Shown piece by piece: positions 1 to 51,372 of a DNA stretch of 64,000 nt. The DNA is from Candidatus Marinacidobacterales bacterium (lineage in GTDB: Bacteria > Acidobacteriota > Vicinamibacteria > Marinacidobacterales > DATDRI01). The notes under the pieces are model-generated. The model was not told the DNA's origin. It saw nothing but the letters and a program-made list of their open reading frames with translations, and did no database searches. Location: positions 2,400,001-2,464,000 of the forward strand of contig CBDCNP010000002.1 in the NCBI GenBank assembly GCA_965219415.1, read 5' to 3'. Numbering within the stretch: the stretch's first letter is position 1; each line of letters starts with the position of its first letter. Both the position numbers and the translations under genes were made by a program.

Positions 1-44
1 CCAGACTACCGAAGTGCTTCTTGAACGACTCGTCGACCGAGGAG

Positions 45-1880
45 TTAGTCTCTCTCCCCCAGGGCGCGATCAAGATTGAACGCCGCACTGATCAACCCGA
101 GATGCGTGAACGCCTGCGGGAAGTTCCCCAAGGCCTCGCCACTGAATCCCGTCTGCTCGGCGTAAAGTCCCACGTGGTTGGCGTAACCGAGCATCTCTTC
201 GAAGATGACCCGTGCACGCTCGAGCCGGGTGCGATCCGAGCGACCGGCGCGGGTGAGCGCCTCGACTAACCAGAAGGTGCAGATATTAAACGTTCCTTCC
301 TCGCCTTTGAGCCCATCGGCGGTCTCCTCCACGTTGTAACGATAGACCAGGCTGTTGGAGAGGAGTCCGCCTTTGTGTGGAGGCTCCATCGTGGCGTCGA
401 TGGTGCGAAGCATCCGCGGATCAGTGGGTGAGACAAAGAACACCAGCGGCATCATTAGATTGGCCGCATCCAAGGCATCGCTATTGTAGTGCTGAACGAA
501 AGCATTGCGTTTCTGGTTCCAGCCCTTGGCCATGATCTCCTCATAGATCCGATCACGCACGTCGTTCCAGCGCTTGCGGTCTGCGGGAAACGAGCGCTTA
601 TCGGCCAGTCTCAAGGCGCGATCGACCGCCACCCAACACATGAGCTTGGAATAAACAAAGTGCTGCTGCCCCCCGCGCACCTCCCAGATGCCCTCATCCT
701 TTCGTTGCCAGTTGTCGCACACCCAGTCGATGAGCCGGCGGAGGTGGAGCCAGAGATCATAGGAGATCGGCTGCCCGTATTTGTTGTACAGGTACACCGA
801 ATCCATGAGCTCACCATAGATGTCGAGTTGCATCTGGTCATAGGCGCCATTGCCAATGCGCACCGGACGTGAGCCCTTATAGCCATCCAGGTGATCGAGA
901 ACCTCCTCCGTGAGCTTTCGCTCTCCGCCGATGCCATACATGATCTGTAGCAACCCGTCTTCAGGGAGCTCATGGCAGATCTTCTCGAGCGCATCCATGA
1001 AGTGGGCCGCCTCTTGCGTGAAACCGATGCGCATCAGCGCGTAGAGTGTAAACGCGGCGTCGCGCACCCAGGTATAACGGTAGTCCCAGTTGCGCTCCCC
1101 GCCGATGCCTTCGGGGAGGCTCGCGGTGGGAGCGGCGACGATGGTGCCGGTGGGTTCGTAGGTCATCAGTTTCAACGCCAGCGCCGAGCGGTGTACCATC
1201 TCGCGCCAGCGGCCCCGGTAAGTGCATTGTGCGAGCCAATGGCGCCAGTAGTCCACAGTCTTCTGGGCCAGCCCTAACGCCTCGTCTTCGGTCAACAACC
1301 CCTTGTGGCCAGTGCCCGGATCGACGCGCCCGAGCACAAATATTGCTGCTTGGCCCTCATTGAGAGTGAACTCCGCGGTGACCCCGTTCCGCTGTTTCTT
1401 TAGCTTTCGGCGTGTGCCAAGCCCCAGGGTCAGACTGGGTGATTTGAAAACCGCGCCCGTTTCTGCGAGCTCGGTCGTGTGTTCATCGCGCGCGTAATTG
1501 AATGCAGGAAAACACTCCATTCGAAAGGCCATCGTGCCGCGCATACAACGCGCGGTGCGCACGAGTTGATGGCGGTCCTGCCCGTCACGAGGCAGGCCAA
1601 CGGGCATGAAATCCACCACTTGGCCCACTCCATCCGGGCATAAGAATCGGCTCACAAGCACGTTGGAGTCTGGCCAGTAGAACTGTTTGTGCGTAGCCCC
1701 GTCGGCGACTGCGGTGATCTTGAAGTGGCCGCCTTTCTGGTCATCGAGAATGGCAGCGAAGACGCTGGGGGAATCGAAGCGCGGGAAGCAGAACCAGTCG
1801 ACCGAGCCATTCATTCCGATGAGTGCCACGGTGTTCAGATCGCCGACGATGCCGTAATCTTCTATGGGTTGGTAGGCCAT
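45..1880 (-). CDS. Glycoside hydrolase family 15 protein (glucoamylase/trehalase-like)
   Basis: 611 aa with GH15 motifs: N-terminal IEDYGIVGD...[53 protein letters not shown] and C-terminal [13 protein letters not shown]. Confidence 0.92.
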
Positions 1881-2113
1881 GGTGCGACTCCCTTACGTGC
1901 GCCGGTGGAAGGCTTTCGTTGTATCAGATCGGGGCACGAACCCGGTAGCCAACGGCGCCAGGCGTCATTTCGAAAAACATTCATTGCCGGTGCTAACGTC
2001 GAGAAATTGCCGGCGTCGAAAAAAGGGAATCGTACCACACCGCGAGAGTTGCGTCCGCAATCTCGACTACGACTCCCGTGACCCAGCCGGGTCCTATTTC
2101 GGAAACAGGAAGT

Positions 2114-2370
2114 TCAGCTGAAAGCGCCACTCGAGACCGGCTGGATATTCATGACCCAAGCCGTCGGTCGTTTTCGCCGATGTCGAAGAAGGTGTTCGGC
2201 TGAAGCGGAAGGCTGATCAGATTGGCGACTGGGTTCTGGGACTGCATAGCGAGGTCCGACTCTCCGTCCTGCGGCGCCTCTTGTGCAAGGACAATCGCAC
2301 ACGGCGCTAGCATCCACATCAGCAAGCAGACTGCGGTTCCCTTGATGCGGCTGACGCGATGGATCCTCAA
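2114..2370 (-). pseudogene. Truncated, frameshifted secreted or outer-membrane protein remnant
   Basis: Signal peptide followed by QNPVANLISLPLQ. The next conserved-looking block (VMNIQPV) is in another frame and then stops. The start overlaps the sulfatase stop (ATGA). Confidence 0.55.
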
Positions 2371-4414
2371 GATTCACCCGTGACAGGGACAGGGCCCACC
2401 TCGAAGTCATTCAAATCGGAGTCCGGGGTCGGCCCCTTGGTACCGGGCAGGATCTCGAAGCCAAGCTCAAAGCGCACCATGGTCGAGGCCAGCTGCTGCA
2501 GGACGCTGAGATCACCCTCGGCCTGCGCGTCTCCATCGGCGATCTGGTCTGCTAGTGACTTCACGCCCGCCATGACTTGTCCCAGACCCAGGCGAGTGAT
2601 GGTGAGCGTGAGGTCCGCGTCCTCTGCCTGGTAGCCTTCGATGTTGGTCAGCGTGGAGTTGCTTAGCTCGATGACGAACTGTTCACCGTTGTCCGGCGTG
2701 ACCAGGTTGATGGTGAACTGCATACCCTCTGCTTTGCGGCTGTCCATCAGGATTCCCAGGAAATCGAGGAATAGTTCGGTGGTCATGGCCCGTAAGATGT
2801 CCGGGGTCAGCCCATCCGGAGTCGCGCCCTCGGGGATGCCCGAGCGCAGCTCGTAGGCCCCGGCGAGGAAGCTGTTGCGCAGACCCAGGTTTTCCTCTGC
2901 TCGAAGACATCCGCCAACAGGTCCTTGGCCGGCTGGTTTTGCGGCTCGGCGAATACCAGTTTGTTCAGGATCTCCGTGGCTTCGAGGTACTTGCCCTGAT
3001 CGTGCAGCTCCCGCCCTTTGGCCATGATCTTGTCGGCACCACCCATCATTTCCACATACAGCGGCGCGGAGTCTCGCAGCGACAGTGGAATCAGCGTGGC
3101 AGGGTTGACGTCCCAGTAGCCCAGGTAGCGGTTGATCACGCCGCGGCTGTTGTGCTCCGGCGAGCCGTGATAGCCGCGGTTATACCACTGGTCGGAAATA
3201 CTCTTGGGCGTCTCGTAGACATTGTGAATTTCATTGATCGTCACCCCCTGGTTCGCGAAGTGCAGCACCTGGTTGTTCATGTTGGCATACAGATCTCGCT
3301 GCCCTTTCAGGACTTCCTGGATCCGTTCGTTACCCCAGCGCGGCCAGTGGTGTGAGGCGAACATCACCTCGGCTTCCATGCCGTATTCGTACAGCGCCTC
3401 ATTGATGTACTTCGACCAGGCCAGCGCGTCACGCACCGGCGTACCGCGCAGCGTGTAGATGTTGTGGAACACGCCCGTCACGTTCTCGGCCATCCACAGC
3501 GCCTTCATGTCGGGTAACCACGTGTTCATCTCGGCGGGTGCCTCGGTGTTGGGCGTGTTCTGGAAGACCATCTTCACGCCATCGACGCTAAGCTCCTCGA
3601 CGTCGTTCTCGATGATGCGAGTCGGTGGGATCAGGCCGGTGTGGCCGGCAGCGGTACTCTGTGACAGCCCCTGCCCCGACGTAGCCATAGGGCTCGCCGG
3701 CAAAAGCACGCCGTACTGGTAGAACAGGCGGCGATTCATGGCGTTGCCGGCGTAGACATTCTCTGCGATGGCGTGTTCCATGAAATCGCGGGGCGCGATG
3801 ATTTCGACTTTGCCCGCGCGAACGTCGGCCTCATCGACGATGCCGCGAATGCCCGCCCAGTGGTCCCCGTGGTTGTGGGAGTAGATCACCGCCACGACCG
3901 GCAGCTCGCCCAGGTGCTCGTCGACGAGCTCCTTGGCCGCCCGGGCCGACTCCGAAGCCTCCGTGGGATCGAATACGATCCACCCGGTATCACCCTTGAG
4001 GAAAGTGATGTTGGCGAGGGCGAAGCCACGCACCTGGTAGATGCCGGGGATCACCTCGTAGAGGCCATAGTTCATGTTGAGAAGGGACTGGCGCACCAGC
4101 GATGGATGAATACTCTCGAACTCATCGCCCTCCAGCAAAAAGCCGAAGCGTTCCATGTCCCAGGCCACGTGGCCGGCATCCGCCATGATCTTCTTGGAAT
4201 CCGGGGCCGCGATGAACCCCTTCTTCTGCTCCTCGAAGTCCCGCGTGTCGGCGAAGGGCAGCGTGGTTCGCGCCTGTTCGAGCACCTCGATCGTGTGCTC
4301 CGAGGGCGGCTTGCCCTTGGGATGAAAGGGTTTGTCCTGAGACTCGGCCGGAGAGCAAAGGGCCACCGTTAGGCCCGCAACAGCAATCACTCGTCCAAAG
4401 AAGACGTGGGGCAT
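2367..4414 (-). pseudogene. Alkyl/aryl-sulfatase (SdsA/BDS1-type metallo-beta-lactamase fold), frameshifted
   Basis: Signal peptide, SHNHGDH metal motif, YTLRG, SHHWP and RGYHGS. The frame breaks at about 2898 after DVFEQ and resumes as ENLGLRNSFLAGAYELRSG into the SCP2-like C-terminal ORF 2367-2786. Confidence 0.85.
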
Positions 4415-4468
4415 TTCAATTACCTCCTAATTTCCGCTTGGGCGGTCGCGGGATCATAAGGGCCTCCT

Positions 4469-4508
4469 GAACGAAAAGGAAACCCGTAAAATTACGGGTT
4501 TTCGTTCT
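4469..4508. terminator. Inverted repeat, terminator-like or an operator
   Basis: GAACGAAAA..AAACCCGTAA-AA-TTACGGGTTTTCGTTC, lying downstream of the HAD gene and upstream of the sulfatase. Confidence 0.4.
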
Positions 4509-4539
4509 GGGAAACTACCTAGGTGATACGCGAGGGCTG

Positions 4540-5238
4540 CTAGGGAGAAGAGCCGCCGCTGGCGATGGCTGGGAGCTCATCGAGCCGGGAGATCTCATGG
4601 TTGACTCCGGCATCGGGGTCGGCGGTCTTGCCGTGCGGGTTGTACCAGCAGGTAGCGATGCCGTAATCCGCTCCACCGCGGATGTCTGAGCTGAGGCTGT
4701 CGCCGACCATGAGTGCCGCGTCCTTCGTCGGGGAACCGAGGGCTCGGAACGTCGCGTCGAAAATCTTGCCGTTCGGCTTCGATGCACCGATCTCGGCTGA
4801 GATCACAATGGCCTCGAAGTATTGCTCAAAATCGAGGCGCTCGATTCGGGCACGCTGCACCCCGCTCAGTCCGTTGGTGATCAAGGCCAATGTCGCTTGG
4901 CCTGCGAGCTGTTCGAGTACATCGCGGGCCCCGGGGTAGAGGTCGCCCTTGGCACCGAGGTCTACTTCAAATCGTTGGGACATGCGCTCGGGATTCGCAT
5001 CGAATCCGATCTCGGTGATCAGGCGCTCGAACCGAGTGACCCGCACATCGTCCGGAGTGATCTCACCACGCTCCACGGAGGACCACAGCGGCTTGTTGAT
5101 TCCAACGTAGGTCTTGTGGTGCCGAAGCGGTTCATCGACCCCCACCGCTCGGAGGGTTTCCTCGAAGGCTGCAAGTTCGCAAGTATCGGAATCGAACAAG
5201 GTGTGGTCTAGATCGAAGAGCAGGGTCGTATAGCGCCT
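4540..5238 (-). CDS. HAD-family hydrolase (YjjG-like nucleotidase); start codon apparently lost
   Basis: In-frame RYTTLLFDLDHTLFD (HAD motif I) lies upstream of the listed ORF, with ITNG, SKP and MVGDSLSSDIRGG downstream. The expected ATG position reads AGG (5236-5238). Confidence 0.8.
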   Translation of the reverse strand, partial: RRYTTLLFDLDHTLFDSDTCELAAFEETLRAVGVDEPLRHHKTYVGINKPLWSSVERGEITPDDVRVTRFERLITEIGFDANPERMSQRFEVDLGAKGDLYPGARDVLEQLAGQATLALITNGLSGVQRARIERLDFEQYFEAIVISAEIGASKPNGKIFDATFRALGSPTKDAALMVGDSLSSDIRGGADYGIATCWYNPHGKTADPDAGVNHEISRLDELPAIASGGSSP

Positions 5239-5292
5239 ACCTGAGCCGACGCGGGCAGTAGCCTAAGGCGCCCCGCATCTCCCGGTGGCGGG

Positions 5293-6719
5293 ATGATATC
5301 ACTCGCGATAGAGTCGCCGACGATGTGGGCCTTGTTCGTGATCCTCCTGGGCGTCGCGGAGGACTGGCCGCAGTTCCGCGGAGTCAACGCGGCCGGCGTG
5401 GCGGATGAGACGGGCCTTCCCGTGCAATTCGGTCCGAGCTCGAATGTCGCCTGGAAGACACCGATACCCATGGGGCTGTCTTCACCTTCGATCTCGGGCC
5501 GGCGTATTTTCCTGACAGGCGTCGAGGATGAGAGGCTCTTCACCTTTGCTCTCGACCGGGAAACAGGACGCGTTTTGTGGCGGCGCGAAGCGCCGCGCCC
5601 ACGGTTGCAGGAGCTCCAGGAGCAAAACCACCCCGCATCTCCACGCCGGCCACGGATGGGAAGAGCGTTTACGTTTTCCTTGCCGACTTCGGATTGCTCT
5701 CGTATGGGCCGGATGGCAACGAGCTGTGGCGCCTGCCGCTGGGGCCGTTCAACAATCCTTTCTGCCACGGGTCCTCTCCGATCCTCGTGGGGGATCTGGT
5801 GCTCCAGGTTTGCGACCAGGACGATGGGTCGTTTTTCATCGCCGTCGACAAAGCGACCGGCCGGGTTGTCTGGAGGGCACCGCGCGCCCTCGCGCAGCGA
5901 GGCTACGCCACACCTGTAGTCTACCAGCCTCCCGAGGGAGGGCTTCAGGTGCTCGTGATTGGCTCCTACCAGTTGAATGCCTACGACGTCGTGACCGGGA
6001 AGCTGGTGTGGTGGATCCGCGGTTTTCCCTGGCAGATCAAGCCGACACCGATTCTGACGGGCGATGCGGTCTACCTCGTGACGCGCGCGGGCGAGTCGGA
6101 TCCCGGCGAGCAGGAGGTCGTCCCCCCTTTCCCGAAGGCCCTCGAGCAGCTGGACGACGACGGCGACGGAAAGCTATCCAAAGAAGAGATCGTCGATGAG
6201 AGAGCGATACGCCGCTTCGACGAGTACCTGGATCTGGACGATTCGGGATTTCTCGAAGAGCGCGACTGGGACCAGTTCCGCATGCGGCGCGAGGGTATGA
6301 ACGCGCTCTGGGCGTACCGTCTCGGTGGCGAAGGCGACATGACGGAGCGGAACTTCATGTGGAAGAACTCGAGCTCGCTCCCCAATGTTCCCTCGCCGCT
6401 TTTTTATCGCGGAGTCCTCTATACCTTGAAGGAAGGTGGCATCCTGACGTCTTTCGATCCTGAGACCGGGGAGATCCTGAAACGAGCAAGGCTCCGTGGT
6501 GCTCTCGGAGCCTACTACGCGTCGCCCGTGGCCTCCGACGGAAAAATCTATGCGGTCAGCGAAGAAGGCAAAGTGGCCGTCATCCGCGCCGGAGCGCAGT
6601 GGGAGCCACTCGCCGTGAACGCAATGGATGAGGGCTCCAAGTCCACACCCGCCATCGTCGACGAAAAACTCTACATTCGAACCTACGACGCCCTATACAG
6701 CTTCGCGCGGAAGAACTGA
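5293..6719 (+). pseudogene. PQQ-like beta-propeller (BamB-like) protein with EF-hand-like insert, single frameshift
   Basis: Signal peptide plus EDWPQFRG and repeated SSP/TP..W propeller blades. HPASP|TPATDG is split by a 1-nt loss at about 5642. DDDGDGKLSKEE and DLDDSGFLEERD loops are present. Confidence 0.8.
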
Positions 6720-6780
6720 ACGACGGTGAGGCTTGTGCACCGGGCGCGGTCGAGAAGATCGGCTACGACGTAGATTCTTT

Positions 6781-8166
6781 GGGTCTACGCGGATTCGTGT
6801 GGGTTGAAAACTGCATTTCTGGGTAATGGCGGAAGGAAAGCCGCCACGATCTTCAGCTTGAGATATTCCTCGTCGCGATAGCCGTAGGCGCGTCGTTGCA
6901 GAACACGGATTTTGTTGTTGACCCCTTCAACTAGGCCGAGACTGACTTTGTTCTCCGGATGACAGTAGGAGGCGATACCATCCCAATGGGACTCAATCAT
7001 ACCGGCGAACTTCTGGTACGGATGCAGGCGTTGCCATTTGAGGCTGTCTTTCCAACGGGTGAAAAAGGCGCGAGCGCCGCGTTCGGTGCGGTAATCCCAG
7101 AGTTGCCCGAAGGCCTCCTTCAAAATATAGGCGGTGTTCAGGCGCCGGTTGGCCTGGAGCAACTTTTTGAGTGCGCGGCGACCGTCTAGGCTCAGGTTCT
7201 CCCGCCGGGAAAGCAAAGTGTAACGCTGCCCCTTGATGTACGACCGGTCCTTGCCGCTGAGGCGTTTGTACTCACCGCGCCGGACCTCATCGAGGGCCTT
7301 TGACAGATGACGCATGATATGAAACTTGTCGAAGATGATCCGCGCATTAGGCGCGTTGTGAATCACCGAGTTCCGGAAGGGCTTCCACATATCCATGGCG
7401 GCCAGCTTGATACGGGCGCTTTTCTTTCCGCCCGGCGCCTTGAAGAACAAATCGATGTCGGTTTCTTTGCGACCCTCACCGCCCACCCAGATGGGACGCG
7501 CCCGCTCCAGGTCGCTGACAATGACGCGATAGTTATGTCCCTTGCGGATGGAGATCTCATCGACACCGATGGCCCGAGGCGCCGGTAGCCCCGCCCGGTT
7601 CGACCTACTCTTGCATGTAGAGCGTATCCAGAGCCTTCACCGTACCGTGGTGCAGACGTTCCATCTCGGCCACCGCCTTGTTCGGCATATCCCGGCACAG
7701 CTTGCCCACATGGCGTCGCAAAACGCTGGGTGTAGCGCGAGTTGTTCGCCAGCCAGTCTAGGTGTTCTACATGCACACCGCCGCACCCAGAACAGTTGAC
7801 GCGCCGACGCTCGTATTCCAGATAGATCCGCCAGCCAGCCAACGACAGGTCGCGGACCCGGCACACTTGCTTGTCATAGCGCCCCCGGCACCGTTGCCCA
7901 CAGTAAGAGCACACAGCTGTTTTTTTCGCCTCTTGAGCTGGATGACGCGGGCGTATCGGTCACCGAATAGACCCTTCAATCCGGCACCAACCACGAAACC
8001 TGGCAGCGCAAACAGCGAGCGGATCGACTGGGAATTTTTCACTCGGTTAGCCTATCCTAAAAATGGACCACTTTTCAGCACCTGATGAAGTACTCGATAC
8101 CTTTTCCACACAATGAGTTACACTGTTTTTCCGTCAGAACTTACCCACACGAATCCGCGTAAACCC
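6781..8166 (-). mobile_element. ISL3-family insertion sequence with degenerate transposase
   Basis: 24-bp IRs (GGGTCTACGCGGATTCGTGTGGGT at 6781-6804 vs 8143-8166, 1 mismatch) and 8-bp TSD GATTCTTT (6773-6780, 8167-8174). Transposase motifs CxxC..RDL, GVDE, MDMW, FDKFH and EGVNNKIR are spread over several frames with an internal stop. Confidence 0.93.
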
Positions 8167-8705
8167 GATTCTTTCAACGCCCTCCGAATTTCATCCACGT
8201 CGCTCGCTACGAGTGCCGGAGAAAAATGCTTCAACCGCGCGAGGACGTCGCTCGTACCGAAATAGTCTTCGGCGCACTTCGTGTGTATGAAGCCCGACGG
8301 CTCGAAGCGACCCACCTCCTCGTCGTAGTACACAACCGAGATGCGCCAGGCGCCTTTCTTGATCGCCTCCCGGCAACTTCGACAGCGCGCCTGGCCGGTG
8401 GGGGCGCGGTCCGCTCCGTTGAGACGGGGGAGACGCCGGAACTCCAAGCTTCGCTTTGCTTCGGTCTCGAGCCACTCGGCGTTTTCGATGGTTTCGGGCG
8501 TGCTCCGCGCCGCTTCCAGATAGGGCTCGGGTCGTTTGTACGCCCCACAGACGAGATGAAACCAGAGCGTGAGCTCACCCTTGCCATAGGGGTTCGGCAG
8601 GCGGGCGCCGAGCCTTAGCTCGTCCTTGGCGATTTTCTCGCCGCACCCGCGACAGTTGGCCCGGCCGCTCGCCGCGGGCTTGATGGTGTGAACGATTTCA
8701 GCCAA
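8118..8705 (-). CDS. Tandem PARP-type zinc-finger protein
   Basis: Two repeats of A-x-S/T-G-R/Q-A-x-C-x2-C...I-x-K...R...H-x2-C (CRGC..WFHLVC and CRSC..FIHTKC). The C-terminus is altered by the ISL3 insertion. Confidence 0.8.
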   Translation of the reverse strand: MAEIVHTIKPAASGRANCRGCGEKIAKDELRLGARLPNPYGKGELTLWFHLVCGAYKRPEPYLEAARSTPETIENAEWLETEAKRSLEFRRLPRLNGADRAPTGQARCRSCREAIKKGAWRISVVYYDEEVGRFEPSGFIHTKCAEDYFGTSDVLARLKHFSPALVASDVDEIRRALKESGLRGFVWVSSDGKTV

Positions 8706-8896
8706 GGTATGCCTTGCTTCTCGAAGCCGACCACGTCGAGGTCGGCAATCAGTATATCGCCGTCCGCCTCGGCCAACTCAAGGGAACCCGAGCTCGGTGC
8801 TGTGCCAACAGCCGGGTATCCTCATTTAGACAGAAGATCGTGAAGGCACTCCTAAAGGAAGGCAGCGGGCAAGGCGACCGAGGGAACGAGAGTCGA

Positions 8897-9151
8897 TCAA
8901 GTCCAGAAGTGCCGCTTCGCGAATGCCCTCCCCGAGCCGGACTTGAGACAGCGCTCGAATTCTAGCGCTCGCGCTTCATCCTCGAACCAAACGGCCGCTC
9001 TGAGCCGCCAGTTTCGATGTTTGCTCGTATGAGGCGACTTCCCAGAGTTGTGGTCAGTGAGTCGCTGTTTCAAGTTCGATGTGACACCGATGTATCGCTC
9101 CAAAGGGTCTGTAGCCCGTCGAAGCAAGTAGACGGTTTGCTTTGATCTCAT
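8897..9151 (-). CDS. Small stand-alone GIY-YIG nuclease
   Basis: MRSKQTVYLL..RYIGVTSNLKQRLTDHNSGKSPHTSKHRNW..ALEFERCLKSGSGRAFAKRH. The Tyr/Arg/His/Glu pattern is intact; ATG at 9151. Confidence 0.88.
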   Translation of the reverse strand: MRSKQTVYLLRRATDPLERYIGVTSNLKQRLTDHNSGKSPHTSKHRNWRLRAAVWFEDEARALEFERCLKSGSGRAFAKRHFWT

Positions 9152-9175
9152 AGACAGGGAGACGAGATTCGCAGT

Positions 9176-9294
9176 GAAGGCCCGCCTTCGTCGGCGCACT
9201 TGATGTGACTTCGGCGCGCAACCTTCGCCCTTTTGTAGAACGTTGGCTTGCCAACCGAAGCCCAACCGGCTTATCAGTGGGCGGGCGAAGGTTG
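9176..9294. repeat. REP-like palindromic element abutting the tmRNA 3' end
   Basis: Perfect 12-bp IR CAACCTTCGCCC (9219-9230) / GGGCGAAGGTTG (9283-9294), with CCTTCG/CGAAGG and GGCTTGCC..CCGAAGC motifs shared with other loci. Confidence 0.7.
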
Positions 9295-9640
9295 GTGGAG
9301 GCGGCGGGAGTCGAACCCGCGTCCGAAGACCTTCACCCGTTGCTTCTACATGCTTGTCTGGTTCCGATTTTTTCGCTCTCGCCGGTTAGGAACCGGCAAG
9401 GACCCGACGAAAGCTATCCCCTAAATCTCGCCGATTACCCGGGGAGTGGCAATGCGGCCAGCCTGCTCTGATGACGCCCTTTCCAAACCACGCAGGCGAG
9501 GCCTGGGAGGACGTAGCCTTAAGCGGCTAGTGCTAACTCGTGGTCAGCAGTTGTGTTTTTATCCCACCTTTTTTACGAGTAGATGGCTCTCGGCATGCAG
9601 CAGCGGGATCAATTATCCCCGTCGAATCCGGTGCGCCCCC
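9293..9640 (-). ncRNA. ssrA: tmRNA (transfer-messenger RNA), tag peptide (A)ADHELALAA
   Basis: 5' GGGGGCGCACCGGATTCGACGGG and 3' GGGTTCGACTCCCGCCGCCTCCACCA, with a G3:U acceptor stem. The tag ORF at 9548-9519 ends ALAA-TAA. Confidence 0.96.
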
Positions 9641-9663
9641 AAGTTGGACCTCTTCTAGCCAAA

Positions 9664-9692
9664 ATTGTACATTTGACTAGGGTTTGTAGCAA
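9664..9692 (-). promoter_or_regulatory. sigma70-type promoter of ssrA
   Basis: TTGCTA-17 bp-TACAAT, about 25 nt upstream of the mature 5' end. Confidence 0.6.
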
Positions 9693-9830
9693 CTCCGACC
9701 GCCCTCCGTGCCAACATGCTTGAGACACTTCGCCCCTTGAAATTAGTGTGGAAGGCGGAGGAGGATCATGAATGAGTCTGTTGACTGAACCTCTCCGCGA
9801 AGCTCATTGGCCCAAGTGGAAAGCAGAGAA

Positions 9831-11265
9831 GAGTCAAGCCCATTCTTAGTTGAAACTCTCCACGGCTCACGTTTAAGCGACCTTCTTCTTCGATACGGTT
9901 GATGTCTTCGCCTCGATCTTCAGTTCCCGCTTGAGAGCTTCGCGAAGCTTGGGAAGATGGCGGTAGCCCACCACCTTCCTCAAGCGCGGTTCGATGTCTA
10001 CGAGCGCCGTTGCCAACCAGCGCTGGCGTTGGCTCGAGTTCTTCCAGTGGTCGACCTTCGCGCAGCGTTCCTCGACGAGAGCATTGACGGACTCAAGGCA
10101 GTTCGTCGTCTTGAACGAACGGCCCAGCACCGCGTGCACGCCGAGTCGATGCAACGTCAGCGTCTCCTCGAGGCCTTCCTCCAGGCTGCCAGCTGCGGAT
10201 TGGTTCCGCTCTTCTAACTCACCGTGGAGTTGCTCGAGCGCAGTGAGGGCCTCTTCGTACTCCGGCCTGTTGTAGGCCCACTGGAGCCGCTTGCGCCATG
10301 ACGCCTGCTCGCCCTTGGACAGGTAGCTCACTACGTTTTCACGTTTGTGCCACTGGCAGCGTTGTATCAGGGCCCGCTTACGGAATGCCTTCTTGACTGC
10401 CGCTTGGAGACCCTTGCCGCCGTCGATGATCACCAGCAGACCCTGGGAGATATCGAGTCCCCGCTCGAGCAGTGAACGCAGGAACGGCGTCAACACCTGC
10501 GCGTTCTCCGTGTCCGTCTCCACGAAGCCCAAGAAGCGTTTTTCCCCGCAAAGCGTGATGCCCAGAGCCACGACCATCGTTGCCTCGGCGAATGTCTTCC
10601 CATCCAGAAACAGCGCCACCACATCCTCGCCGGTCAGATCCCGTTCCTGCATCTCCCGCAGCTTCGCAGCGCTCGCTTGCACGAACCCTCGGGACACCGT
10701 TGAGCTCGACAGCCCGATGGCGCCCGGAATCGCTTCCGCTGCCGCCTCGTAGTTGCGACAAGAGATTCCGTAGAGAACTCGTTTCAGCAGAAGATCATTC
10801 ACCTCACCGCCGTGGCTCACCGCCTCGTAGCAGCGAAGCGGAATCTCTCCTCCCTCGATGCTCCGAACCCGTGGCACACGGATCGGTACCCGCTGGCCGC
10901 CAAGCCCTACCGTGCCCGGGTTGCTTCCGGGACGGCGACCGCGCTCCAGCTCGTCCTTGCGAGAGTATCGCTCTCCCGCCAACGCCTTCACTTCGTCGTC
11001 GAGCAACTCGTGAACGTGCATTAGACCAAGGGGGACCAACCAACGGATCATCTCTACCTTGGCGTCCAGCGCGAGTTCCCCGTAATCCTCGTGCCTCACC
11101 ATCTCGACCTCACCCAAACGACGCGACTTCTTGCGTTTCTTGACCGAACGTAGCAGACTTCCCATCTCGGCTCCTTTCTTCGCGGCTTGATTTTGTTTTG
11201 TCCAACGCCATCAAACCACGGGGTTTGGAGCCGTTTCAATTCCCAACTAAGATTGGCACACTTTC
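9831..11265 (-). mobile_element. IS256-family element, copy 1 (1435 bp)
   Basis: Imperfect 22-bp IRs sharing TCTTAGTTG, 8-bp TSD GCAGAGAA (9823-9830, 11266-11273); near-identical to 34545-35979. Confidence 0.95.
9873..11165 (-). CDS. IS256 (Mutator-like) DDE transposase
   Basis: 430 aa with LFLDG, IIDGGKGL, QRCQWHKRENV and TTNCLESVN motifs. Confidence 0.93.
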   Translation of the reverse strand: MGSLLRSVKKRKKSRRLGEVEMVRHEDYGELALDAKVEMIRWLVPLGLMHVHELLDDEVKALAGERYSRKDELERGRRPGSNPGTVGLGGQRVPIRVPRVRSIEGGEIPLRCYEAVSHGGEVNDLLLKRVLYGISCRNYEAAAEAIPGAIGLSSSTVSRGFVQASAAKLREMQERDLTGEDVVALFLDGKTFAEATMVVALGITLCGEKRFLGFVETDTENAQVLTPFLRSLLERGLDISQGLLVIIDGGKGLQAAVKKAFRKRALIQRCQWHKRENVVSYLSKGEQASWRKRLQWAYNRPEYEEALTALEQLHGELEERNQSAAGSLEEGLEETLTLHRLGVHAVLGRSFKTTNCLESVNALVEERCAKVDHWKNSSQRQRWLATALVDIEPRLRKVVGYRHLPKLREALKRELKIEAKTSTVSKKKVA

Positions 11266-17772: not shown

Positions 17773-17864
17773 TCCGCCTTCGCCAGCACAAGAGACGGTG
17801 TGGCTACGGCGGACAAGGCCAGTGCGCCGGCTTGCCGCGCCGAAGCCCGAAGGGCGAAGGCGGG
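17773..17864. repeat. REP-like palindromic element
   Basis: TCCGCCTTCGCC..GGCTACGGCGGAC..GGCTTGCCGCGCCGAAGCCCGAAGGGCGAAGGCGGG; same motif family as 9176-9294. Confidence 0.65.
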
Positions 17865-36548: not shown

Positions 36549-36646
36549 CCCTCACCCTATCCTCTCCCAGCCCGCCTCCGTCCGCCTCTGCTCATTGGAC
36601 TTCGGCGTGTCCGCCGAAGCTTTGGCGAAGGCGGAAGGGAGAGGTA
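36549..36646. repeat. Composite REP-like element
   Basis: CCCTCACCCTATCCTCTCCC...GGGAGAGG encloses GCCCGCCTCCGTCCG..GTCCGCCGAAGCTTTGGCGAAGGCGGAA; the reverse complement closely matches 51294-51372. Confidence 0.75.
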
Positions 36647-51293: not shown

Positions 51294-51372
51294 CCTCTCC
51301 CTTCCGCCTTCGCTAAGGCTTCGGCGGACCCGCCGTAGTCCATAGAATGGAGACGGACGGAGGCGGGCTGGG
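51294..51372. repeat. REP-like element (inverse copy of the 36566-36642 core)
   Basis: CTCTCCCTTCCGCCTTCGCTAAGGCTTCGGCGGAC..ACGGACGGAGGCGGGCTGGG. Confidence 0.75.

Follow-up and report, generated by a model that had tools for sequence, protein, structure and literature searches.

A small GIY-YIG nuclease gene and its hairpin modules at the ends of tRNA and tmRNA genes

Small GIY-YIG nucleases that act on hairpin repeats have been described as the Ssn family. SsnA of N. meningitidis, a protein of 94 amino acids (aa; cd10448), binds the NTS hairpin repeat and cuts single-stranded DNA (ssDNA) just upstream of it, and Ssn homologues cut their own hairpins, genomes rich in the motif usually carrying the gene (Chenal et al. 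2025, Nat Commun 16:2388, PMC11893778). As set out in that paper, the NTS-ssnA-NTS layout is compared with IS200/IS605 and repetitive extragenic palindromic (REP) elements, and the system as a whole with REP sequences and their REP-associated tyrosine transposases (RAYT). Here we analyze a 64,000-nucleotide (nt) stretch of DNA from a Candidatus Marinacidobacterales bacterium (G000:C3:2400001-2464000), referred to as the window, in which the transfer-messenger RNA (tmRNA) gene ssrA is followed by two hairpins and an 84-aa GIY-YIG gene. All window coordinates are positions in this stretch; the host genome, G000, consists of three contigs totalling 8.05 Mb with 59% G+C.

Comparison with relatives strongly supports the conclusion that this arrangement is a conserved cassette found across phyla and not a local oddity. 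The reading we favor, to which we assign a rough probability of 0.55, is that the gene encodes an SLX1-like, probably hairpin-specific ssDNA nuclease which, with its own hairpin family, is anchored at the ends of transfer RNA (tRNA) and tmRNA genes, occasionally relocates, and seeds orphan hairpin doublets elsewhere in the genome.

The cassette and its linkage to RNA gene ends

The cassette lies on the minus strand, where ssrA occupies positions 9293-9640 (ARAGORN, tag ADHELALAA; Rfam RF00023 at 175 bits and E 1e-70, with the full model covered and CCACCA at the end). Immediately behind it, module A (9219-9294) forms a 76-nt nested hairpin whose outer stem is a perfect 12-bp inverted repeat, CAACCTTCGCCC / GGGCGAAGGTTG, at 9219-9230 and 9283-9294 with 52 nt between the arms. 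Positions 9293-9294 are CA, the final two bases of the encoded CCA end of the tmRNA, so that the stem starts inside the RNA gene; both the repeat and its two-base overlap are exactly as reported in a preliminary description of the locus. By simple calculation, chance would give a 1.1-kb region about 0.01 perfect 12-bp inverted repeats with both arms inside 200 nt. Arm 1 (CAACCTTCGCCC) pairs perfectly with arm 3 (GGGCGAAGGTTG). An inner arm 2 (GGGCTTCGGTTGG) offers arm 1 an alternative partner; this second form has TTC/TTC internal loops and, on the opposite strand, is a hairpin with GAA/GAA loops, i.e., it resembles module B in reverse orientation. A small apical hairpin, GGTTGGCAAGCCAACC, is found between the arms, with the apical box GGTTGGCAAGCCAAC.

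Module B (9180-9219, minus strand), a member of a dispersed repeat family, is an imperfect hairpin of the form GCGCGCC-GAA-G..C-GAA-GGCGGGC, with a 7-bp G+C stem containing one mismatch, GAA/GAA internal loops, and a variable inner stem. The pattern GCCGWAG..CGWAGGCGG matches it at 9182-9215; this pattern has five matches in the window vs none in 100 shuffles. The second hairpin reported in the preliminary description, GAAGG/CCTTC at 9176-9189, is present and overlaps the 3' arm of this larger module. After module B, a spacer of about 28 nt contains the box CTCGTCTC (9159-9166, minus strand), 8 nt upstream of the ATG, and this box is kept before the gene within the taxonomic order of the host (G000, G003, G005, G007, G014, G024, G032, and G007:C331). 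The trailer of ssrA thus combines two related hairpins in inverted orientation, and the gene comes after this doublet. Against Rfam 15, the window stretch including 9152-9292 and eight homologous loci match tmRNA and tRNA only.

The gene itself (8897-9151, minus strand, ATG start) encodes a single-domain protein matching Pfam PF01541 (E 1.1e-12, 48.5 bits for a cut-off of 22.6). Its place in the GIY-YIG superfamily is indicated by the domain match, by the catalytic-type residues (two Tyr, Arg, His, and Glu: Y8, Y20, R30, H34, and E66), and by the fold, in agreement with the stand-alone nuclease with intact catalytic-type residues of the preliminary description. Among 75 homologues, no substitution is seen at Y8, Y20, G22, R30, H34, K70, or a C-terminal S-G, and E66 is kept in at least 90%. 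The AlphaFold model (pLDDT 94.9, elements E-E-H-E-H-H) has SLX1 nuclease domains as its best Foldseek matches (query-normalized TM-score 0.70-0.74, 28-35% identity), with UPF0213 proteins next, and sequence searches give 1zg2 at E 1e-7 and SLX1 6seh at E 7.5e-7. The protein has no extra DNA-binding domain. NCBIfam holds no family for it, the ESM Atlas returns unnamed GIY-YIG clusters only, and the gene is present as a single copy in G000. A longer reading of 122 aa, initiated at TTG and running through the hairpins, is unsupported, the homologues beginning at the equivalent of the ATG.

A pattern scan with one genome per species gave at least 589 relatives, and the best 80 loci, from at least 16 phyla, were analyzed. 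ARAGORN places the end of a co-oriented tRNA (48 loci) or tmRNA (13 loci) upstream in 61 of these 80, at 90-564 nt from the protein match; the gap from the RNA gene to the chosen start codon is 43-543 nt. With Rfam, the total rises to 64/80, owing to one tmRNA that ARAGORN had not called (L132) and two RNA genes truncated at the ends of contigs (L110 and L095). In seven further loci, a tRNA- or tmRNA-like 3' end, judged by eye, directly precedes arm 1, and three loci (L109, L118, and L124) show no such end. The RNA genes used comprise 14 tRNA identities plus tmRNA. For comparison, the 600 nt behind each of the 50 tRNA and tmRNA genes of G000 amount to about 0.4% of its 8.05 Mb. The enrichment of tRNA and tmRNA ends upstream of homologues that the preliminary description had proposed as a check is therefore found. 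In two Bradyrhizobium genomes, the 1-kb surroundings of six other small GIY-YIG paralogues contain no tRNA (0/6), and the linkage is therefore a trait of the window family, not of small GIY-YIG genes generally.

The homologues also share the hairpin design. When the 9 nt that open with the final two bases of the RNA gene are taken as an arm, 66 of 71 gaps (61 loci, six relatives, and four gene-less trailers) contain the reverse complement 20-260 nt downstream, with at most one mismatch allowed; about two of 71 are expected by chance. We observe 21 distinct arm sequences, the third stem pair being G-C in 24 cases, T-A in 22, A-T in 11, and C-G in 6. Stem pairs 10-12, which are outside the selection, are paired in 61, 47, and 45 of the 66, respectively. 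Behind tRNA genes that do not encode CCA (L072 and L100), the arm changes along with the two bases that end the gene, giving GA...TC. Since this rule holds across nearly all gaps, the overlap between palindrome and RNA end is the defining feature of the family.

Dispersed hairpins and their association with the gene

The B-type hairpin is also found far from RNA genes, as the orphan repeats of the preliminary description suggested: the strict B pattern has 76 matches in G000, compared to 7 for a reversed-pattern control. Adjacent B pairs (strict doublets) are minus-then-plus in 12 of 12 cases, and at about 30 loci of G000 the doublet is the core of a nested palindromic repeat of about 110-130 nt with the outer arms CCCTCTCCC / GGGAGAGG. 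Within the window, one such doublet lies at 51304-51366, pattern matches locate two orphan B-type hairpins in opposite orientation at 17774-17810 (minus) and 17839-17863 (plus), and a further orphan is found at 36613-36634 on the plus strand.

Hairpins resembling this nested repeat, CCTCTCCC..GGGAGAGG, stand behind tRNA-Arg(tct) and tRNA-Arg(ccg) of G000. A second A+B trailer, 77% identical, occurs at G000:C3:2655383-2655500, away from any called tRNA; the sequence before it ends in CCGCCA, and an open reading frame (ORF) with a signal peptide lies downstream. A different repeat, about 150 nt long and nearly identical between copies, directly follows the CCA of tRNA-Asp, tRNA-Ser(cga), and tRNA-Ser(tga) (G000:C3:780165, C3:2542327, and C3:4994933) and is a second tRNA-end-linked element or an attachment (att)-type sequence of this genome. 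The cumulative GC skew of the three contigs is monotonic, without a signal for an origin or a terminus.

The abundance of the repeat is linked to the presence of the gene. In 25 genomes of families f1 and f2, those with the gene (n=7) have a median of 12.0 B hairpins per Mb and those without it 3.4 (n=18; Mann-Whitney p 0.0004, a value overstated, like the other p-value of this test, by the relatedness of the genomes, which are not independent). Grouped instead by the presence of a Y1/HUH-like candidate RAYT gene, the same genomes have 4.6 vs 4.4 per Mb (p 0.56). The correlation between repeat copy number and gene presence suggested in the preliminary description is thus observed, and it does not extend to Y1/HUH genes. 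The 16 genomes of family f3 have neither the B repeat nor the gene, and G024, whose gene has an internal stop, has B at background level (23 vs 13). G000 also contains two paralogous ORFs resembling HUH/Y1 transposases (motif HxFxFLSNHYHMLV, weak PF01797 matches) at G000:C1:1342775-1343548 and G000:C3:700399-701565. They could be RAYT-like genes, and the B pattern scan detects no hairpin flanking either of them.

The hairpins were typed by their first arm because fixed patterns missed many imperfect copies. The three resulting types require only three changes on the protein tree, whereas shuffling (200 runs, the first 20 listed) requires 12-15. Type 2 (CCTGCTTCGC, B stem CCTCC) is confined to one side of a branch with 93% support, in a clade comprising Alphaproteobacteria plus rows labelled Verrucomicrobiota, Tectimicrobiota, and Parcubacteria; these odd labels come from metagenome bins that are possibly mis-binned, may inflate the apparent spread of type 2, and count against the favored reading to that extent. 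The proposal that the GIY-YIG protein is the cognate enzyme of the palindrome family, acting as an analogue of RAYT, gains from this correspondence between hairpin type and protein clade; the other part of the proposal, that the protein cuts the hairpins and spreads the repeats, stays conjectural, and overall that earlier interpretation is partly supported.

Probable relocation among relatives and the surroundings of the window locus

Among 41 genomes (40 relatives plus G000), nine have a GIY-YIG match at E<=0.001, near full-length in seven (G000, G003, G005, G007, G014, G024, and G032); the stop in the G024 copy is an internal TGA. The two same-genus genomes G001 and G002 do not have the gene, also at ssrA. 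Their ssrA is 94-96% identical to that of the window and is followed by unrelated DNA in G001 and by a simple hairpin with a partial B module in G002; a simple hairpin with a full B module follows ssrA in G003. Seven of the ten fuller matches are located just downstream of a co-oriented tRNA or tmRNA gene, namely tmRNA in G000, G032, G024, and G005:C21, tRNA-Glu in G014, tRNA-Leu(gag) in G007:C798, and tRNA-Leu(cag) in G005:C4. The closest homologues of the window protein (74-75% identity, 94% branch support) adjoin tRNA-Leu(gag) and tRNA-Leu(cag), not tmRNA, and the corresponding two tRNA-Leu genes of G000 have plain trailers. The tRNA-Leu(gag) copy, a gene-less copy behind tRNA-Ser (G007:C862), and two copies on G007:C331 are based on G007, an unpublished genome. 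On the tree of 88 proteins, tRNA identity changes at least 35 times, for a possible minimum of 14 and a shuffled mean of 47; this tree, built from 82 columns by a quick method, leaves 50 of 85 forks open, which makes such change counts rough and is a further point against the favored reading.

A tandem arrangement is found in L093, where tRNA-Pro is followed by two A-B-gene units. The most direct comparison is provided by a tRNA-Tyr site of Bradyrhizobium with flanks about 90% identical: G042 has A+B+gene there, while G050, G075, G091, and G064 have A+B alone, of two other sequence types. These differing contents at an orthologous site imply that the hairpins have been replaced there. The gene-bearing form ends at most about 30 nt past the stop codon, which defines its right boundary at this site. 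In four Bradyrhizobium loci (L143, L144, L146, and L148, from G053, G087, G047, and G097), the tRNA-Tyr side and the right flank are mutually inverted; the inversion breakpoint at the end of the hairpin element suggests that the hairpins are recombination-prone.

Two further loci show particular features. In L036 (G014), the gene lies between tRNA-Glu and tRNA-Leu, both with A-type trailers, and after its stop codon there is a tRNA 3'-end-like remnant (T-arm plus ACACCA end) unlike either neighboring tRNA. In L102, a group II intron domain match (RF00029, 48 bits) is found at 1505-1582 on the minus strand, several hundred nt upstream of the tmRNA-like 3' end that precedes the cassette; neither ARAGORN nor Rfam calls a tmRNA at this locus.

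These distributions can be compared with the behavior of a housekeeping gene. The protein might be an SLX1-like nuclease that resolves branched or structured DNA or serves in repair, placed behind strong tRNA or tmRNA promoters, with the hairpins forming an independent REP-like system that favors tRNA trailers. The low copy number of the gene, its strongly conserved residues, its stable position within several genera, its absence from the plasmids and phages searched, and its lack of a promoter-like site of its own are all consistent with such a role, as are hairpins behind gene-less tRNAs and B repeats in genomes where the gene was not found. Nevertheless, we consider this explanation unlikely: a gene found in 9/41 genomes and in neither same-genus genome is unusually patchy for housekeeping, close homologues sit behind different tRNAs, B density goes with the gene, hairpin type matches the protein clade in different host phyla, and the other small Bradyrhizobium paralogues are not near tRNA genes.

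The candidate promoter of ssrA, TTGCTA-17 nt-TACAAT at 9664-9692 (minus strand), is the only sigma-70-like site within 8700-9900 and lies in a stretch that G001-G003 also keep ahead of ssrA. No promoter-like or terminator-like site and no T-run terminator was found from the end of the tmRNA gene to the GIY-YIG ORF. RNA-library contigs X13-X15, from three runs of one study, cover the tmRNA from 9300/9304 to 9631 with 0-1 differences, indicating that the tmRNA is made and processed. None of them covers 8897-9292, but such contigs cannot show absence, and they say nothing firm on the GIY-YIG ORF; one contig of a DNA-like run spans 8700-9318.

The hairpins might be read as RNA trailer structures of the tRNA or tmRNA precursor, serving in termination, as a processing barrier, or in 5' stabilization of the downstream mRNA and conserved on that account, with an incidental nuclease gene behind them. 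They begin exactly at the encoded RNA end and always on the sense strand behind the RNA gene, the RNA fold has a z-score of -2.5, purine-rich GAA/GAA internal loops are a common RNA motif, and the stop of the RNA contigs at 9300-9304, near the mature end, is a weak hint in the same direction. Only 3 of the 50 tRNA and tmRNA genes of G000 carry such trailers, however, and copies of the B hairpin lie far from tRNAs, in either orientation and as fixed inverted doublets. Together with the differing hairpin types at the orthologous tRNA-Tyr sites and the lack of both a T-run terminator and an Rfam family match, this makes a purely RNA-level function improbable.

The ssrA gene is an integration hot spot, and the GIY-YIG gene could in principle be left-over cargo in the remnant of a tyrosine-integrase genomic island. 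As would fit such a remnant, G000, G001, G002, and G003 have entirely different DNA after ssrA, and transposase genes are present on both sides of the cassette. We consider this origin highly improbable: the ORFs of at least 150 aa in 1-8900 and those adjoining ssrA gave no integrase domain, the 3' end of the RNA gene has no duplicate behind the GIY-YIG gene at the window locus, and the 0.4-kb cassette recurs behind many tRNAs in many phyla without integrases. The preliminary description had likewise seen neither an integrase nor an att duplication. A tRNA 3'-end duplication behind the gene, considered as a general feature of this sub-family, was rejected, being present in 1 of 59 homologous loci, the same as in the control.

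The cassette is surrounded by two transposase genes, one of the IS256/Mutator type and a split one of ISL3, and by genes for a zf-PARP protein and for ordinary enzymes. The IS256/Mutator-family gene (9873-11165, minus strand; PF00872, E 1e-36) stops about 180 nt ahead of the ssrA promoter, and the DNA upstream of this conserved promoter differs in G001-G003. Within its ORF, a weak match resembling an S-adenosylhomocysteine (SAH) riboswitch at 9995-10079 (minus strand; 23.8 bits vs a gathering score of 37, E 0.26) is most likely due to chance. The ISL3-family gene consists of two overlapping ORFs on the minus strand at 6785-7914, with the Zn-ribbon at 7363-7914 and the DDE part at 6785-7486, and is probably frameshifted. 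Directly downstream of the GIY-YIG gene lies a gene for a 195-aa protein with two PARP-type zinc-finger stretches (8118-8705, minus strand; PF00645, E 1.5e-19) and no catalytic domain, which was not seen beside homologues, whose downstream flanks vary. PARP-type fingers are sensors of DNA nicks, and for this reason the neighborhood may be non-accidental.

Proposed explanation and comparison with known systems

In the explanation that we favor, the protein would be a structure- or hairpin-specific ssDNA nuclease with modules A and B as its cognate sites, by analogy with SsnA and its NTS/SRM repeats. Heavy transcription of tRNA and tmRNA genes would often leave the sense strand behind them single-stranded, so that the hairpins could extrude there. 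The gene, which has no promoter-like site of its own, is probably expressed by read-through, which would amount to the co-transcription from the ssrA promoter put forward in the preliminary description. The unit, comprising the hairpins with or without the gene, would relocate between tRNA and tmRNA ends over evolutionary time, and B-type hairpins would spread to other intergenic sites as inverted doublets, while the gene itself would stay at one or two copies, like RAYT genes with their REP/REPIN repeats.

A stronger form of this proposal is that the hairpin doublet and the mini-nuclease constitute a self-contained mobile unit which needs neither an integrase nor a transposase. The nuclease would recognize the hairpins, or the tRNA-like junction, extruded as ssDNA behind strongly transcribed tRNA or tmRNA genes and nick there; copies of the unit would then be placed precisely at the ends of further tRNA genes, and bare hairpin doublets would be copied to other sites. 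We regard this form as possible, though doubtful. If it were true, DNA would be moved by a new mechanism that targets tRNA gene ends to the single nucleotide and is active across most bacterial phyla.

Several observations weigh against the favored explanation. The gene copy number is one or two per genome, and the gene is fixed at tRNA-Ala(ggc) in six Vicinamibacterales/Acidobacteriota rows and at tRNA-Ser(gct) in three Mesorhizobium rows; such stability of position fits a domesticated resident better than an active selfish element. Hairpins are found only on the upstream side of the gene: within 400 nt upstream, they occur in sense orientation at 29 and in antisense at 32 of 71 loci, for 3 and 1 downstream, which is background. 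The cassette loci have no terminal repeat, target duplication, or right-end structure, and searches of 72,556 plasmids and 50,697 phage records at E 1e-8 gave no homologue. Many B repeats are present in some genomes where the gene was not found, such as G004 (61 repeats; 73% complete), G038 (48), G028 (46), and G001 (33). The window copy of module B is imperfect, and the single-sequence fold is only modestly better than that of shuffles (z -1.7 as DNA and -2.5 as RNA); the hairpin structure is convincing through comparative evidence and not through single-sequence folding. Finally, the published SRM motif has no match at the locus and 82 matches in G000 vs 91-108 in simulated sequence; nor does it match next to any of the six further small GIY-YIG genes in Bradyrhizobium.

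Should the protein prove to be a hairpin-specific ssDNA nuclease, the Ssn principle would extend to a second, equally widespread minimal GIY-YIG family, each member of which would bring a natural recognition hairpin useful for ssDNA tools. It would also account for the GC-rich palindromic trailers behind tRNA and tmRNA genes and for part of the REP-like intergenic repeats. For annotation, such trailers should by default be called neither terminators nor small-RNA genes, and the ORF of 80-90 aa behind them should be treated as real.

We compared the cassette with four described systems. The free-standing GIY-YIG homing endonuclease SegB of phage T4 lies in a tRNA gene cluster and is thought to promote its own inheritance. 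The likeness is that of a GIY-YIG gene among tRNA genes; however, Seg proteins have a DNA-binding domain, act on double-stranded phage targets, and have no hairpin doublet, and the window family is without a match in the phage records searched.

By sequence and structure, the window protein is closest to SLX1 and UPF0213 (BH0048, EF2693). SLX1 is a structure-specific endonuclease for branched DNA which has a RING domain and requires SLX4, whereas the window protein is a bare nuclease core. The window family further differs from SLX1 and UPF0213 in its own C-terminal signature, F-E-R-Y-L-K-S-G-S-G-R-A-F, and in its fixed genomic context.

Similarity with the REP/RAYT system lies in a single-copy gene with dispersed palindromic repeats arranged as inverted doublets, as found here, and in vertical inheritance with a patchy distribution. 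Nevertheless, the enzyme is a GIY-YIG and not an HUH/Y1 protein, and the repeats are not on both sides of the gene. The two Y1-like ORFs of G000 are located elsewhere, and the presence of a Y1-like gene does not track B density. To our knowledge, anchoring at tRNA ends is not a feature of RAYT genes.

The Ssn family shares with the window family a single GIY-YIG domain of about 90 aa, below the 150-aa limit of that family, a gene located next to hairpins that are dispersed elsewhere, and a repeat abundance tied to the presence of the gene. Ssn proteins are characterized by homology to SsnA of N. meningitidis or cd10448 at E < 1e-10 and by site-specific ssDNA cleavage beside the hairpin, dsDNA and RNA being left uncut (PMC11893778). 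An SsnA-type paralogue of Bradyrhizobium, L156 (95 aa), which has Y6, Y17, and E64, the residues mutated in the Ssn study (PMC11893778), was used as a stand-in for SsnA. It is 33% identical to the window protein over 54 aa (E 4e-6, pairwise), and hhalign relates L156-type proteins to the window family with 97% probability at 27% identity. In Supplementary data 4 of that study, Geomonas paludis is given as NO in all four columns and Mesorhizobium neociceri as NO/NO/YES/NO, neither thus having a full SsnA/cd10448 call, and Pseudaquidulcibacter saccharophilus, the carrier of homologue L081, also as NO in all four (PMC11893778). In the G. paludis and M. neociceri genomes, matched by species name, the window family is the only small GIY-YIG gene, in addition to UvrC. 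These sequence relationships point to the window protein being a member of a sister, SLX1-like family beside Ssn.

The families also differ in motif and layout. Ssn hairpins are often present on both sides of the gene, whereas those of the window family are upstream only, and the window cassette is fixed to tRNA and tmRNA 3' ends, whereas the word tRNA is absent from the main text of the Ssn paper and appears in its searched supplements in gene descriptions only (PMC11893778). We found no description of the tRNA-linked cassette in the literature on GIY-YIG proteins with tRNA, tmRNA, or REP, or on the Ssn family since 2025. The concept of a minimal GIY-YIG nuclease cognate to a hairpin repeat is already published for Ssn (PMC11893778). 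The single-nucleotide anchoring to tRNA and tmRNA ends is the new and testable part, and its position at the last two bases of the RNA gene points to a new targeting mechanism.

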